60,434 bases of DNA, filler included, from Fonticula-like sp. SCN 57-25 (GCA_001724245.1; 5 parts of 5 records of this genome joined end to end with filler, not necessarily neighbours in it), one strand, 5' to 3'. Positions 5,061 through 60,434 are shown, counted from the whole stretch's first letter. Notes: a model not told the origin generated them from the sequence alone. Translations and numbers: made by a program.

Positions 5061-8000
5061 ATGCACCAGGATGGAGCCGGCCTGGTTGACTTCGGTACGC
5101 GTCTCGCCGTGTTCCTCGCGCGTGCGCGGCCTGACGCATGTCTTGCACAGAGTCTCGCGTGGCCGCGTAGTGTCATCGCGCGCCTTTTATATAGGCAGGG
5201 CCATTTTTGCGCTTCGCATCCTCTCCTAATCCTGTACATTTGCTTTATTCTAATCATGGGCCTTTCGTACCCGGCGGTCCGCTCCTTTGATGCTTTTCTC
5301 AGTCGGCCGCGTGGCTTTGAACCCGCCAAGTACTGGGAGAGCAGCGCGGGCCTTTCCTCTGTTGAGAACGACATTTTCATGGACACCTTTCGCGAAGGTC
5401 CCTTTCTTCAGATGCGGCATGTGTTCCTGACGTCGCCCCCCGATGTCTCGTCGTCAAATCCCACCGGGCATCGCGGCGTCCTTTCAAAGGAATTTTTCAT
5501 GAACCTCTTTAAGCTTTACTCTAGCATTCAGTCGTTTGCGGTCCCGTCGCCTTCCACCGGCGATCCGCTGACCCTCCAAGATCTCTGCTTTCGGTCGTCC
5601 GCGTCGGATGACGCCTGCGTGATCCACTCGCCACTCGAGTACTGGCGCAACGATCTATGGCGGCTCACCGCGGACCCCGACATTTACGCGACGCTTGGGT
5701 CGCGGCACGTGCGGTCCAGCATGGGCGTGCCGATGTCGATGCCGCTCGTGTTTGGCGGGATCACCAGCAACGAGACTACCGGGTTCCCAGCGGCCGCGTC
5801 GTCGGCCGTGCTCACCTTTTTCTTTGACGCTCAAGACAGAGAGACGATTCAAAACATCAACGTGTTTTGGGAATCGTTCTGGGAAAGCGCGTGCGAGTCA
5901 GAGGCCGAGCGGAGCCTCGTCAAGATGTTTGGCGTGGAAGGCGCGGTATGCAAGGCGGAAGGGAACACGAGGCGCTTCCTTATGACCGTACGCGGAAAGG
6001 AAAAGGGCTCGACAATGTTAAAGTAATATTTGGCGCGTGTGCTCACTATTGCTTGCCTCGCTAGTTCAACCAAGTTGGCTATGAGCAGTTTGCCGAGATG
6101 CTCCTGCTCGGCCTGAGCTACTTCCTTGTGTTCCTGTACATTTCTCTCTCCCTTGGCCGCGTGGATCTTGTCAAGTCACGCTTTGGTCTTGGCTTTTCGG
6201 CCGTCGTGCTTGTCCTCTCGTCGTTCACAATGTCGTTTGGCGTGTGCTCGCTCCTGGGCATCCACCTGGACCTCGTCCCGTGGGAAATTCTGCCCTTCAT
6301 GGTCATGGCCGTCGGCGTTGAAAACACGTTTGCTCTCACGAGCGCCGTCGTCGCCACATCGGTCGACCTTCCTGTGCGCCAGCGCGTCGGCCTCGGGCTC
6401 GGCCGTTTTGGCGGCTCAATGACGCGCACGCTGATGGCAGAAATCATCATTCTCGGCGCGGGCGTCGGACTCGGCGTCCCCGTGCTCAAGGAATTCTGCA
6501 TGGTCGCGGCAGTCGCCGTCGTCATCGACTACCTGCTCCACATCACATTTTTCATCACTGTACTTTCTATTGACATGAGGAGACTTGAGCTGGCCGACCT
6601 CGGCAAGCACCGGGGCGGCGTGGTCGCTGAAGCGGAAGGGGGCGCAGAGGACGATGGTGCCCCAGCACAGGGAGAAGGAAGGAGGAGGCGAAAGTGGTGC
6701 CGCCTAATCAGTATCGCGGTACGAATTGGCGGTGTCAATGTGGCAATATTGTGGCTCTTTGCGGTTATTACAGTATTATATTCTTGTTTTGTTTTGTTCT
6801 CTTTATCCAACATTTTCCTTTGCTTACATGTGGTACAGGTTGCGGTGGCTATTGTTATTGTTATCGCAATCTATGGCACGACCGACGACGCGTCCACCTC
6901 CGCTTCGTCAGCCTTTGCGTCCGCCGCGCAGCAGGCGATGTTTGCCAACTCGACGTCGACTGCTGTGGACCAGTTTTGGGCGGCGGCCAACCCGTCGCTG
7001 TCTGACACCCACCTCGAAATCAGCGGGTCGCTCATTGTCAAGCTCTCGTCGACGAAGCAGCCGGCGGCGCCGCATCGCACACGCCTGCCGCGCCCGTCGT
7101 CGACCCCACGCACCTTTGTCGGCGAGCAAGTCGATACTGGCGCAACACCGGACGCCCCCGCGGACGACGACATGTACGACGCGCGCGCGTCCGATTGGAC
7201 GTTGGATGTTGCCTTGCTGGCGGCGGCCACGGATGGCGGCCCCCTCTTTGTCGTGTTTGTCGGCGTAATCATTCTGGGCTGCGTCGGCGCGATCATGGTG
7301 ACGCTCGGCTGCGACCCACAGCATGTGCTCGGCCTCATTTTCCCGCGGCAATCCGCGCTGTCGTCGCTGCCGCCAGAGTGGCTTGTTGGCCCGGTGCGCC
7401 AGGTGGCGCTGCGCGCGCGCGGCGATGTCGAATCTTTTGCCGCTACAGAACACTTTGTGGCCACGTGCTCCCTCGACCGCGTGCTGCGCCTCTGGGACCC
7501 CGCGACGGGCGAGTGCCGTGCCGCTATGCCCGCCGGGGCGGGCGCCGCAGTGTGGCATGTGGCCGCGGACGGCCCGTGGGTTGCCACGGCAGGCGCCGAC
7601 GGCCAGGTGAGCATCTACGACGTCGGGCGGAGGACGACGCCAATTTTTGTCTCGCGAACGGTTCCTTATATGGACGATGACGAGCACGAAGCCGAGGAGG
7701 CGGAGCAAGCAGAGAATCGCGGCCACGCAGCCGCCGTTCATGGCCTGATCGTCGACGCTGACGTGCTCGGAGGCGTTGTCCTGTCTGGGTCGGCCGACCG
7801 CACGGTGCGCGTCGCTGCGCTGCACGGCGGCCGCACGCTCGCCACGCTGCGCCACTCGGCGCCCGTCGCGCAGCTGCTTATGCCAAAGGGCGGGACAGCG
7901 TTCGTGACTGGTGCGTCGGACGGGTCCGTGCGCCTCTACGACCTCGCCGCCGTTCAGGGGTCACCGGACGCGCTCCTTACCCTGCGCGGCCACGTCACGC

Positions 8001-8644
8001 CAATCACCGCTTTGGCCGTCGCGCCCGCCGCGACTGCTACCGACAAGCGCGCGGCCGACACTGCGAGCGCCACACAGTCAAATGCCACATTAAATGCAGC
8101 GGCCGAGTCTTTAGTCGACCCTTCTCCTGCGGCACCCCTGCCCGCGCTGTGGATCGCGTCCGGGTCCGAAGAGGGCCAAGTGCGCGTGTGGAACAGCGCG
8201 ACGGGCGAGTGCACACTGGCCCTGACCGCCCACAATGGCCCCGTGCGGCAGCTCGCGCTGGACGTAGCGTCCGGAACGCTCTTGAGCGCTGGCCAAGACG
8301 AGTGCCTTGTGCTGTGGGACGTGCGCACGCAGCGGGCCGTACGCCGCATCGACATGGCGGGGTGCACCGCCTTTGCAGTCGTCGACGGGATTGCCGTCGT
8401 GGCGGCCGGCACGGCGTACCGCGCGTACGAGCTCGCAAGCGGGCGGCTCATCGGCGGCGTGGGGGCCGCGGCGGCCGCAGAGAGGAGGGCAAGCTTTGCG
8501 CCGGCGCTGCTCAGGCCGGCTGACGAGGCGGGCGATATTGTCACGCGTATCGTCAGCGTAGGGGGAGCGCTCTTGAGCGACCACGGAGATGCAGTCATCA
8601 TCTCTCATCTGTCCGCCGCTAGGAGCGTCAGGGCACAAAAGTAA
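5061..8644 (+). CDS. SCAP: SREBP cleavage-activating protein (sterol-sensing domain + WD40), 3 exons
   Basis: SSD YISLSLGRVDLVKSRFGLG and FFITVLSIDMRRLELADL (MELADL-like), luminal C..HSPLEYW, C-terminal WD40 repeats; introns about 5988-6064 and 6719-6838. Confidence 0.9.
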
Positions 8645-43431: not shown

Positions 43432-43504
43432 AAACGTCGGTGCAACGACAACAATTCCCGCGCGCGCCATCCCCGGTTTCACACGTTGGCTGTGAAGGTG
43501 GGGC

Positions 43505-44920
43505 ATGGATCCCGCTGAGCTATTTGCGTCAAAGCGAGCGGCGGCGGCATTGATGAAGGACGCCGTCGCCAAGACCTCCCGTCCTCTATCCCCCCCGCCG
43601 ACGCCCCCATCCCCCATCAAGGTACCCAAGCGGTTGGCCTTTAAGGAAGCTTTGACGAAGAAGGTCGCTGAGCTGGGAAGCGATGGCACGCGTAGCCGCT
43701 CATCTATCCTCTGCGCGCTGCTGAACGATGCCATGCCGGTGTTGACGAGCGATACGACGTGGTCCGCCGAGGGGCTTAATCCTATTGGCGATGGGCCTAT
43801 GTCGTGTTTGAAAACGACCATGTCACCATCACGCCGGAAGCGCAGCGTGCGATTTGCCGACCCAGTGTACAGCGTGAATCTTCTCGACGACGCCGATGAG
43901 GATCGGCGTAACCCTTTTGTGAGAATTATTTCAAAGAGACGCACGAGGAGCGAGGCCGAAGACCCTTTGACCCCTCCCGAGCAGCTGATCTCGGCGCCAA
44001 GTGAAGCCGAGAAGCCCGTCGACAAGCAGCCAAGCGGATCGGCCGTCGTGGCGGCCGCGGACCACCTGACCTGGTGGGCAAAGACGACCCCGGTTTCAGA
44101 GTCCTCTTCCCTGGACACTTTCCTTGATCAGGTCGATCCCGACGTCGAGGCCGACAGGACGTCCGCCTCGAGCCCCGAACGGACAGCGACACACCTCGAT
44201 CTCGCGCAAGTTTCGCCGCCTTTTTCGGACGCTGTCCCGCCAAGCACAGCGACGCACGCGCCGCCGCCGCCGGAAACGACCGCGTCGCTGCTCGAAAGGG
44301 CGTGGCTGAACCTCCCCGGCGCGGTCAAGGAAAAGGCGTCGGTCGACCCCGCCCTGGTCATGAGCGCGCAAGGCCGCAAAGACGTTTTGGACGACGCAAA
44401 AGCCGTGTCCCCCGCCGCGGCGGGCGACCCTTTGGTGATTGTCGTCGATTCTCCGCCGAGGACGCCGGTCTCGCCGGCTGCGTTGCGCCCCTGGGCCCTG
44501 CCTGATGACTCTCCTCCCATGGACGAGGCTACCTTGGAAGACGACTCGGAGCTGGAAAGCGACTTGGAATCGACCGACGACGCGTCCTACGAGGCCGTCG
44601 GGTCGGCAGACTGCACCTCCGCCGCCTTGCCCACGAAAAGAAAGGCGCAAGACGACGCAGACGAGAGCGACGGGAAACGGCGGCGGCGCCATGCAGGGTT
44701 TCAGTTGCTGCCCGTCATTGAGATACCCGCCACGCCAACTGGGAGCCAGTATGAGGCCGAGCGCGTAGTTGACAAGCGCTGGGTTGATGGCTGTCCGTTC
44801 TACCTCGTCAAGTGGGCGCACTTTTCGAGCGAGTGGAACACGTGGGAACCGCGAGGCCGCCTTTCGTGCGACGCTCTCATCAGGGATTTTGAAGAGAACC
44901 GCAGTTTTGCCCATAGCTAG
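43505..44920 (+). CDS. Largely disordered protein with a C-terminal chromodomain and a PP1-docking motif
   Basis: YEAERVVDKR...YLVKWAHF....NTWEP with intact aromatic cage; SCLK...KRSVRFADPVY; single exon. Confidence 0.85.
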   Translation: MDPAELFASKRAAAALMKDAVAKTSRPLSPPPTPPSPIKVPKRLAFKEALTKKVAELGSDGTRSRSSILCALLNDAMPVLTSDTTWSAEGLNPIGDGPMSCLKTTMSPSRRKRSVRFADPVYSVNLLDDADEDRRNPFVRIISKRRTRSEAEDPLTPPEQLISAPSEAEKPVDKQPSGSAVVAAADHLTWWAKTTPVSESSSLDTFLDQVDPDVEADRTSASSPERTATHLDLAQVSPPFSDAVPPSTATHAPPPPETTASLLERAWLNLPGAVKEKASVDPALVMSAQGRKDVLDDAKAVSPAAAGDPLVIVVDSPPRTPVSPAALRPWALPDDSPPMDEATLEDDSELESDLESTDDASYEAVGSADCTSAALPTKRKAQDDADESDGKRRRRHAGFQLLPVIEIPATPTGSQYEAERVVDKRWVDGCPFYLVKWAHFSSEWNTWEPRGRLSCDALIRDFEENRSFAHS

Positions 44921-57739: not shown

Positions 57740-58696
57740 ATGGACAGGCTGGCTCACCTCAGCGACGTTTTCGGTACATTTTCTTTTGACGATCAATCGC
57801 GCGCATGCTCAATTGCTTTTTAATTGCTTTTCTTAGAGGATGAGTGTGGCATTTCGTGCCGGCTGATCGCCGTGTTCGTCAGCTTTGTGGGCGCGTGGAT
57901 CTGCTACGGCATGTCGTGTTTCGTGTGGAACCGCGCGTCGGTCATGTACCGCTCCCTTCCCGCCGACGAGAAGGCGGCGTGGGACACGCGCACCGTGAGC
58001 ACGCTGCACTCGATCGTCACGGGCGTGTGGGCGATCATTTGCCTGACGTCAGCCACGTACCACATGCCGAGCTGGAGCGTTGGCCAGCCGACGTCAATGT
58101 ACGTGCTTCCTGCCGAGGCGGCGCACGACGCGGTGCTTAGCAACGGGACCGGGGATATGGGCTTTGCGTCGGACAGCATGATCCGCGGCGCCAAGGAGTT
58201 TTTCTTTGGCGGCAACTACCAGATGGAGCTGATGCTGTGCGCGAGCCTGGGCTACTTTCTGCAGGACAGCCTCGTGATCATGGGCGTGCGCGGCGCGCTG
58301 TGGAAGTACGAGGACCTCGTGCACCACGTCACCGTCCTCGCCAACCTGATGACGGCGCTGATCGCCCGCACGTTCCTCCCGTACATCACGTGGGTGTACC
58401 TCGCCGAGCTCAGCACGCCGCTCCACAACCTCCGCTACTACCTCGAGCGCTTCGGCCGCTCCTCCATGGTGCTCGACGCCACCTTTTCGCTCATCTTTTT
58501 GGTCGTGAGGCCCATCAGCTTCACGTGGCTCATCGTGCACATCGTCCAGCACTTTGAGCTCTGGAGCCACTCGTTTGCTGCTTACATGATCCTCGCTGTC
58601 GCTTGCTTCTTCTTTGCGCTCAACTATTATTGGACGCTGCTCGTCATTCGCGGAATCGTCGACGCGCTCAAGCCCAAAAAGATCAAGCCCGAGTAG
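57740..58696 (+). CDS. TLC-domain (TMEM56/TLCD-like) membrane protein, 2 exons
   Basis: WDTRTVSTLHS, SLGYFLQD, LVHH, AELSTPLHNLR, LNYYW; KKxKxx-type tail. Confidence 0.88.
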
Positions 58697-59278: not shown

Positions 59279-60434
59279 ATGTCCGATCCGACCATCTCGG
59301 CTCGGTACGCCAACGCGGTGCCGCTCAGCGAGACCCCGAATGCGTCTCTGGTGGACACGACGCGCGTCGTCTCTGCCTCGCAGGACTTTACGTCTTCGGC
59401 TGACACGTCGAGCAACATCATGCCGATGCAGTCGTTCACGTCGGCGCCGTCGGTCGCCCCCGTCCCCGTCGTGGCCGTCGTGCCTCCGCCCGCGCCGCCC
59501 GCGCCCGCGCCCGTTATCGCCGCCACTCCCCAGATCAAGTACGACGACCCCGAGCAGCGCCGCCGGCTTCGCCGCTGGTACCTCTTTTCCGGCATCTTTT
59601 TGCTGCTCAACGCGATCGTCCTCGCTGCCGTCGGCGGTGCCGTCGACTCGCCCTACGTGCGCCTCTTCCCTCTTTTTTCTCGCTTTGTGTATTTCATGCT
59701 AACGCTTTTCCGCGTCGAAACAGTACCGCGCGGCGACCGGCTTCAACGCGTACGACCCCGCGACGCGCCGCTTCCGCTACACCAACCTCGACTACCGCGG
59801 CAACATGCTCATTGTGCCCTACATCAGCATCTTTGTCGGCATTGCGGGCATCGGCTTCATCCTCACGGGCATCTGGGCCAACAAGGTGCAGCGCTCGCTC
59901 GCTAGCCGCCGCCAAAACTATCACCATCTTGCTCGCGTACGCACTTTTTTGTGCTTTTTATACTCTTTTTCCATGCTGACGATGCGCAAAAGGTGTGCCT
60001 GGGAGACGATTCTCTTTGCCTTTGCCATTGGCGTCTCTGAGATTTTCCTCATGATTGCCCTTGGCGGCCTCACTATCGCCCTATTTGGCTTTTGGATGCT
60101 CATGGACGTACGCGCAGCCCATATTCATGATATATATTGATGCTGACTTTGGCCGCAGGACGTGAACCGGCCCGGCACGCGCACCAACTTTGGCGCGCAC
60201 ATCCTGGGCTGGGCCATGTGGGCGGTCCTCTTTACGATCCTCTTTGCGTACACGTGGGCCAACTCGAACCGCGCCATGCCGGCCATTCTCTTTGTCACGC
60301 TCTTCATGGTACTCGCTCAGTACACGCTCATCGGCCTCATCCAGGTGCGCTGCCATCAACAACTGCGCCATATTTGATATGACTAACATTATCTCGTGCA
60401 GTTTGTGCATTATGTGACGTCATCGTCGATGAGC
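59279..60434 (+). CDS. Divergent heliorhodopsin-like multi-TM protein (3' end beyond the window)
   Basis: Spliced product follows heliorhodopsin TM1-TM6: LRRWYLFSGIFLLL, long TM1-2 loop YDPATRRF, SLASRRQNY, LMDDVNRPGTRTNFGAHILGW, MPAILF, LIQFVHY. Confidence 0.6.

Follow-up and report, generated by a model that had tools for sequence, protein, structure and literature searches.

The window, the whole stretch of 60,434 nucleotides (nt) analysed here, consists of five parts of five records of the genome of Fonticula-like sp. SCN 57-25 (GCA_001724245.1) joined with filler, and at its end it carries, from an ATG at 59279 on the plus strand to the cut at 60434, the 5' five-sixths of a spliced nuclear gene of an uncultured eukaryote. 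We conclude, with a probability of roughly 0.7, that this gene encodes a conserved heliorhodopsin descendant in Fonticula-like protists, very probably chromophore-free. Judged from its sequence, the protein is a heliorhodopsin family member by descent, in which the predicted scaffold is retained and the photochemical core removed; because the residues that hold and tune retinal are lost, it probably works without light.

A HMMER pass through 1,835,955,588 representative proteins, with a read-through piece covering transmembrane helices (TM) 2 to 4 as query, gave four matches at an expectation value (E) of 0.001 or less, namely two fragments of the window locus and the proteins P0007 and P0008. 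P0008, the sole full-length relative found (360 residues, 45% identity and E 7.4e-12 to the read-through), is the uncharacterised hypothetical protein H696_05277 (XP_009497415.1, UniProt A0A058Z2J5) of Fonticula alba, a named member of the Opisthokonta (order Rotosphaerida) with a sequenced genome, which fits the protist origin proposed in an earlier interpretation of this DNA (hereafter the sequence-only reading). Window protein and P0008 are 41.8% identical over 225 core positions, juxtamembrane patch and bits of the N-terminal tail (N-tail) included, and P0008 likewise has a disordered N-tail (~95 residues), the KY.DP.Q.RRLR patch, the hairpin loop and the same spacing from NY to GVS[DE]. 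P0007, 109 residues long and 52% identical, is a fragment of a protein from a third organism; it lacks intron 2, its open reading frame (ORF) being continuous through TM3, and has an intron-like read-through exactly at intron 3. A word-index search of longer proteins gave no match to the read-through and, with P0008 as query, found only P0008 itself; no relative appeared when metagenome contigs were scanned with exon 4 and P0007, and viral contigs scanned with P0008 gave no match. P0009, a bacterial-looking membrane protein of 555 residues, was set aside as unrelated; that it shares a 90% cluster with P0005, a fragment of 55 residues, is probably a clustering artefact.

The family assignment of P0008 was consistent across sequence and structure searches. 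In Pfam, P0008 scores 56.7 bits with PF18761 (Heliorhodopsin; cut-off 26.7, E 2.9e-15, profile positions 1-239 of 242), with no other family at E below 2 and no type-1 family at E ≤ 10. Six sequences of solved structures match it at E ≤ 10; five of them are heliorhodopsins (48C12 and TaHeR) aligned to residues 99-345, at E values between 9.6e-6 and 2.5e-4, whereas the remaining one, at 0.66, is a chance match. An AlphaFold2 model of P0008 (predicted local distance difference test, pLDDT, 72.6; predicted template modelling score, pTM, 0.68), computed from an alignment of 38 rows, 32 of them bacterial heliorhodopsins, has seven helices and two strands (135-143 and 148-160), which make the TM1-TM2 loop, encoded by exon 2 in the window gene, a beta-hairpin. 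When this model was submitted to Foldseek, all ten matches at E ≤ 0.001 were chains of 48C12 or TaHeR (template modelling score by target 0.68-0.76), and type-1 rhodopsins appeared only from E 4.7e-3. Descent from type-1 rhodopsins was accordingly rejected, there being no type-1 Pfam match at E ≤ 10 and type-1 structures ranking below heliorhodopsins. The alignment-free ESM Atlas model of P0008 gave a template modelling score of 0.87 to a heliorhodopsin cluster, and 30 of 30 feature matches were PF18761 clusters.

The window protein itself was scored with a home-made profile built on 32 heliorhodopsins from one actinobacterial phylum, where 116 of 401 genomes were positive. Its spliced form reaches 41.0 bits, collinear from the basic patch to TM6. 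Among 2000 shuffles the highest score was 11.3 bits; reversed sequences gave -2.9 and -2.6 bits, and no unrelated ORF among the 1349 of the window exceeded 9.3 bits. Each exon alone stays below 10 bits. The heliorhodopsin kinship claimed in the sequence-only reading is thus supported, by profile for both proteins and by fold for P0008, and the comparison on which that reading had staked itself, a missing or a better match to another family in profile or structure, came out for heliorhodopsin descent. Four Lys or Arg and no Asp or Glu in the TM2-TM3 loop and two and none in the TM4-TM5 loop would, together with the RRRLRR patch, fit an N-terminus that lies inside; the outward hairpin, however, also has five Lys or Arg. 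The canonical heliorhodopsins 48C12 (PDB 6SU3, 6UH3, 9LJJ) and TaHeR (6IS6, 7U55) belong to the same family as these proteins by profile, sequence and fold. A long TM1-TM2 beta-hairpin is common to them, as are Asn101, Gly124, Asp127 and Gln213 and, in P0008, Ser242 and Trp246; an N-in topology may be as well. They differ in that identity is only 16-23%, a ~90-residue N-tail has been added, and the Schiff-base lysine is Leu in P0008.

Residues of the retinal site were compared in the numbering of 48C12, fixed by the alignment of P0008 with 48C12 (which places His23, Glu107 and Lys241 on the right letters), with the 32 actinobacterial heliorhodopsins as reference and P0007 for the part that it covers; the loop positions Pro40, Arg91, Tyr92 and Leu96, where alignments disagree, were left out (Table 1). 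At the five positions of the RWxEY motif, which carries the counterion, the window protein reads FAVTI, P0008 HWFGM and P0007 RGMTT. The Leu and Phe that the sequence-only reading had placed at the TM1 and TM2 histidines are indeed found at His23 and His80 of the window protein. His23, His80, Glu107, Tyr108, Asn138 and Trp173 are absent from both the window protein and P0008; Trp105, Ser111 and Pro172, kept in P0008, are all replaced in the window protein. Leu12, Asn101, Gly124, Asp127 (as D or E) and Gln213 are kept, as are Gln26, Ser242 and Trp246 in P0008, a cluster described as structural (10.1101/767665, here and below cited from part of the text). Most of the lost residues are listed in the same source as conserved across all heliorhodopsins, and of that set Ser237, Glu107, Ser76, His23, His80, Tyr108, Asn16, Glu230, Arg104, Glu149, Gln216 and Tyr226 are nearly all replaced here. 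Lys241 is lysine in 32 of 32 actinobacterial heliorhodopsins and in 30 of the 30 top Patescibacteria ones. By these predicted residues, the window protein lacks the counterion, the histidine pair and the polar residues of the cytoplasmic cavity (Asn16, Tyr108 and Arg104) that define a rhodopsin, as P0008 does, the TM7 lysine being judged on P0008. The suggestion that the protein is 'possibly retinal-free' thus gains indirect support, from Leu336 of P0008, which occupies the Lys241 position, and from the loss of all photochemical residues readable in the window protein up to TM6. Separately, one actinobacterial heliorhodopsin (L146, genome G361) has Leu at both His23 and His80 with its lysine and RWxEY intact.

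Table 1. Residues of the retinal site and its surroundings (48C12 numbering) in 32 actinobacterial heliorhodopsins and in the three eukaryotic proteins.
Position	32 heliorhodopsins	P0008	Window protein	P0007
Asn16	N 32	Y	Y	not covered
His23	H 31	M	L	not covered
Ser76	S 26	I	A	T
His80	H 31	Y	F	W
Arg104	R 32	H	F	R
Trp105	W 31	W	A	G
Glu107	E 32	G	T	T
Tyr108	Y 32	M	I	T
Asn138	N 31	T	T	T
Glu149	E 32	H	D	not covered
Trp173	W 32	F	F	not covered
Gln216	Q 32	H	H	not covered
Tyr226	Y 32	S	outside	not covered
Glu230	E 32	D	outside	not covered
Ser237	S 32	N	outside	not covered
Lys241 (Schiff base)	K 32	L	outside	not covered

The TM3 motif of the window protein is affected by a probable assembly error. When contigs of four sequencing runs were compared with the stretch, every bridging contig of runs X1, X2 and X4 had 11 extra bases behind 59920, and the sole X1 contig without them ends exactly there, which points to a mis-join at 59920 when the source sequence was assembled. 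Because these bases are missing from the window, its exon set is out of frame (exon 2 up to 59936 joined to exon 3 from 59993 runs into a stop at residue 213); once they are restored, exon 2 closes in phase 2 and is in frame with the acceptor at 59992. The sequence NYPFAVTILLA is found across the gap site in P0006 and P0010, both of them ORF fragments from other assemblies. The repaired protein has 23 residues from NY to GVS[ED], as in both relatives, compared with 15 in the window as given, and a strain difference at 59929 is synonymous in the repaired model and changes Leu to Pro in the unrepaired one. An alternative model with an in-frame acceptor at 60005, eight residues shorter, was rejected for its TM3 spacing of 15 instead of 23, a profile score of 35.5 instead of 41.0 bits and one non-synonymous strain difference. 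In the sequence-only reading the NxxRWxEY motif had become NYHHLAR; the loss of the motif stands, and the letters do not, since the repaired stretch reads NYPFAVTI, with FAVTI in the place of RWxEY and no counterion motif. The letters NYHHLAR come from the gap and are probably an assembly artefact.

The exon borders, the Pro/Ser-rich N-tail and the six TM helices described earlier were all recovered, the borders in the form of the ATG at 59279 and four introns with intact splice signals. These introns measure 51-67 nt and all begin with the donor GTRCGC, contain the branch box CTRAC and end in the acceptor AG; their GC content is 0.39-0.48, compared with 0.64 in exons, and the splice junctions as proposed are predicted from such signals and from homology. 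The spliced translation comprises an N-tail of ~90 residues rich in Pro, Ser, Thr and Val, then RRRLRR before TM1 (the basic patch noted before), and six hydrophobic helices with the expected long TM1-TM2 loop, all encoded inside the window. A contig of run X1 bridges the window end and extends 364 nt further. A paralogue search of the window found no second copy of the gene. The stretch is found in sequencing runs of metagenomes from bioreactors, wastewater and aquatic sites. Small shares of many other runs in the run listing may rest on a low-complexity part of the N-tail coding sequence that attracts unrelated contigs (Table 2).

Strain variation provides evidence on selection. We listed and classified 40 of 47 single-letter differences between the window and the run contigs, and all statements on differences refer to these 40. 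All 17 exonic differences are synonymous under the repaired model (exon 1, 6 of 6; exon 3, 3 of 3; exon 4, 6 of 6), 18 fall within the 174 nt of introns 1-3 (13 of them in the 51 nt of intron 3 alone), and the density of differences is roughly fivefold higher in introns than in exons. Since every exonic difference is synonymous, we conclude that the protein is under strong purifying selection.

Next, we asked how these proteins relate to heliorhodopsins of bacteria that also lack the lysine. Scanning 401 Patescibacteria genomes gave 97 positive ones (G562 counted), from which the 30 best matches and the four most divergent sequences fetched were examined; the lysine is present in 30 of the 30 best and absent from two of the four divergent ones, L184 (genome G495; Q at the TM7 lysine, Y at Glu107) and L185 (G443; N and K). 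These bacterial proteins resemble the eukaryotic ones in lacking the lysine and Glu107, and differ in keeping Arg104, Trp105, Glu149, Tyr226 and Glu230. In a tree of 68 sequences, whose other heliorhodopsins come from Actinomycetota and Patescibacteria, P0008 and the window protein group together with support 1.0, their common stem being 2.5 substitutions per site long, and L184 and L185 are among the three sequences most distant from P0008. Given this distance, the eukaryotic lysine loss is probably independent of the bacterial one.

Several observations weigh against the conclusion that the window gene encodes a chromophore-free heliorhodopsin descendant. The case for the window protein as such rests on its own predicted splicing and on a home-made profile, and the good AlphaFold model of P0008 was built on an alignment dominated by canonical heliorhodopsins; an alignment of the family only (6 rows) gave a poor one (pLDDT 52.6, pTM 0.39). 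Single exons and the exon 2-3 read-through had no Pfam heliorhodopsin match at E ≤ 10, and phmmer with the same pieces returned no match among solved structures at E ≤ 10. These empty searches are explained by the score of each exon alone, below 10 bits. They are nevertheless what speaks for an unrelated, lineage-specific multi-pass membrane protein whose likeness to heliorhodopsins would be compositional, a matter of hydrophobic helices, as does the ESM Atlas search with the read-through piece, in which only unnamed clusters appeared, at 0.82. Full-length, collinear profile alignments of 41 and 54.7 bits, compared with at most 11.3 for shuffled, less than 0 for reversed sequences and at most 9.3 for other membrane ORFs of the window, stand against such an origin, together with a P0008 score above the Pfam curated cut-off and a fold search in which heliorhodopsins outrank all type-1 rhodopsins; we regard this explanation as close to refuted, and it is the one to which we give the least credence. 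Scarcely more probable is a decaying pseudogene, a heliorhodopsin relic in which the 11-base deletion is part of the decay. In its favour, joining exons 2 and 3 breaks the frame in the window as given, the photochemical residues have been lost, and no run on record as RNA carries the stretch, which also counts against our conclusion as regards transcription and splice junctions (the only run guessed to be RNA, X11, contributes a single 267-nt contig over exon 1, with no splice joint). Yet the 11 bases are present in every bridging contig of three runs and in two independent ORF fragments, the exonic differences are synonymous without exception and about five times sparser than intronic ones, splice sites are intact, and two more lineages retain the protein (42-52% identity), an intron position being conserved as well.

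A protein that is still a photoreceptor, with the TM7 lysine kept in an unusual site that lacks the counterion and absorbs in the ultraviolet or blue or is otherwise spectrally odd, is also unlikely, less so than a pseudogene. Here the evidence turns on TM7, which in the window gene lies beyond 60434, so that lysine loss is seen only in P0008, a protein ~42% identical; TM7 was not recovered by scans of two contig collections and a targeted protein search, and a search with a small alignment of P0008 TM6-TM7 and the last pieces of the window protein found only an exon-4 fragment, P0011. Unlike P0007 and P0008, which have Leu there, the window protein carries a Glu inside TM3 (CAWET, in the region of 60000-60004), and it also has an Asp at the Glu149 position. 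If the lysine were retained, these two could be part of an unusual chromophore site; Gln213 and Asn101 are conserved too. Against a photoreceptor, the remaining readable Schiff-base and polar-cavity residues are hydrophobic or small, at the positions of His23, Ser76, His80, Arg104 and Trp105 and likewise at those of Glu107, Tyr108, Ser111, Asn138 and Trp173. P0008 has Leu for Lys241 and Asn for Ser237, and P0007 too is without Glu107, Tyr108 and His80.

If the protein is indeed a chromophore-free heliorhodopsin descendant, no protonated retinal Schiff base would be held, and its role would be independent of light. It might then serve in the membrane as a regulator or scaffold, with the cytoplasmic loops and the long disordered N-tail as contact sites for partners. 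The long disordered N-tail common to the window protein and P0008, the charged cytoplasmic loops of the former and the analogies with heliorhodopsins and opsin-related proteins favour such a role: heliorhodopsins have been reported to bind and regulate partner enzymes, for example glutamine synthetase (PMC9529153, cited in part), and lysine-less yeast relatives of type-1 rhodopsins to regulate the plasma-membrane H+-ATPase (PMC7714340, in part). A regulator or scaffold, the role we prefer, is nonetheless a doubtful guess by analogy, and this too weighs against our interpretation. Lipid scrambling, or leak or transport by the empty scaffold, might be alternative roles; light-independent scramblase activity has been reported for a proteorhodopsin (PMC10730872, in part).

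Loss of the retinal lysine is familiar from other rhodopsin families. 'Rh-noK' genes make up about 600 of 5,558 type-1 rhodopsin genes (excerpts of PMC7714340), and lysine-less animal opsins are known (PMC9368030, in part). Rh-noK and the yeast opsin-related proteins made the same move as proposed here, a rhodopsin scaffold that lost its retinal lysine yet stayed under selection, with a role presumed independent of light (the same excerpts), in a different rhodopsin family and with the opposite membrane orientation. For heliorhodopsins, a large survey kept only sequences with the TM7 lysine (PMC9601134, in part), which discards lysine-less sequences by design, and the lysine is treated as a family constant in passages of 10.1101/2025.11.27.691015. 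Our literature search, with supplements and subscription journals outside its range, found no link between heliorhodopsins and Fonticula and no mention of the P0008 accessions; within the same range, wording for lysine-less proteins turned up type-1 cases only and no description of a lysine-less heliorhodopsin.

What heliorhodopsins do in the cell is largely unsettled, and a conserved eukaryotic branch with the scaffold and no chromophore site would point to a use of the scaffold independent of light. As a tentative proposal, to which we give somewhat less than an even chance, Fonticula-like opisthokont protists maintain, under purifying selection, a small clade of heliorhodopsin descendants in which the entire chromophore site is lost, from the lysine and the counterion to the histidine pair and the Trp residues of the pocket. 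If true, the clade would parallel, among type-3 rhodopsins, the type-1 and type-2 opsins that lack the lysine, and would expose an activity of the heliorhodopsin scaffold, be it partner regulation, lipid handling or transport, that is free of photochemistry. A family so far considered chiefly in monoderm prokaryotes, algae and giant viruses would also gain a lineage of heterotrophic opisthokonts, with Fonticula alba as a named, genome-sequenced species in which a scaffold role could be studied. On the technical side, an 11-base gap in an assembled metagenome contig led to a misread motif, and single-exon searches, with less than 10 bits for each exon compared with 41 for the spliced protein, missed the family.

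Table 2. Features of the gene and of the remaining window (positions counted from the first letter of the window).
Feature	Position	Strand	Evidence or remarks
Exon 1: ATG, N-tail, basic patch RRRLRR, TM1	59279..59656	+	translation; N-terminus and juxtamembrane part alignable to P0008
Low-complexity stretch of N-tail, GC-rich, Pro/Ala-coding	59454..59511		contig depth 69 compared with ~13 around; loose ends on both sides
Intron 1, 67 nt, GTGCGC…CTAAC…CAG	59657..59723	+	GC 0.48, exons 0.64
Exon 2: TM1-TM2 loop, TM2, cytoplasmic loop, start of TM3	59724..59936	+	11 nt short in the window
Site without the 11 nt: CCCCTTCGCCG; CCCATTCGCCG in run X2	59920..59921	+	all bridging contigs of X1, X2, X4
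Intron 2, 56 nt, GTACGC…CTGAC…AAG	59937..59992	+	splice signals; no counterpart in P0007
Exon 3: remaining TM3 and TM4, family-conserved AIGVSEIFL	59993..60107	+	
Intron 3, 51 nt, GTACGC…CTGAC…CAG	60108..60158	+	intron-like read-through at same place in P0007
Exon 4: TM4-TM5 loop, TM5, TM6	60159..60344	+	
Intron 4, 57 nt, GTGCGC…CTAAC…CAG	60345..60401	+	splice signals
Exon 5, first 11 codons: end of TM6 and loop	60402..60434	+	TM7 beyond window
ORF with TLC domain (TRAM/LAG1/CLN8)	57824..58696	+	55.8 bits
Sterol-sensing domain and WD40 repeats in one frame	6065..8644	+	151 bits (sterol-sensing domain)
Phosphoenolpyruvate carboxylase frame, 575 residues	19625..21352	-	603.8 bits
Open frame ending in a chromo domain	43496..44920	+	

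The rest of the window is also eukaryotic in gene content and includes a class II tRNA synthetase and an RCC1-BTB protein. The TLC-domain ORF lies directly upstream of the heliorhodopsin-related gene on the same strand, and the frame that combines a sterol-sensing domain with WD40 repeats is SCAP-like. The phosphoenolpyruvate carboxylase frame stands out because the organism's nearest protein relative here is an opisthokont amoeba; fungi and animals are not known to have this enzyme. The chromo-domain frame could encode a chromatin protein or be part of a chromovirus-type retroelement.

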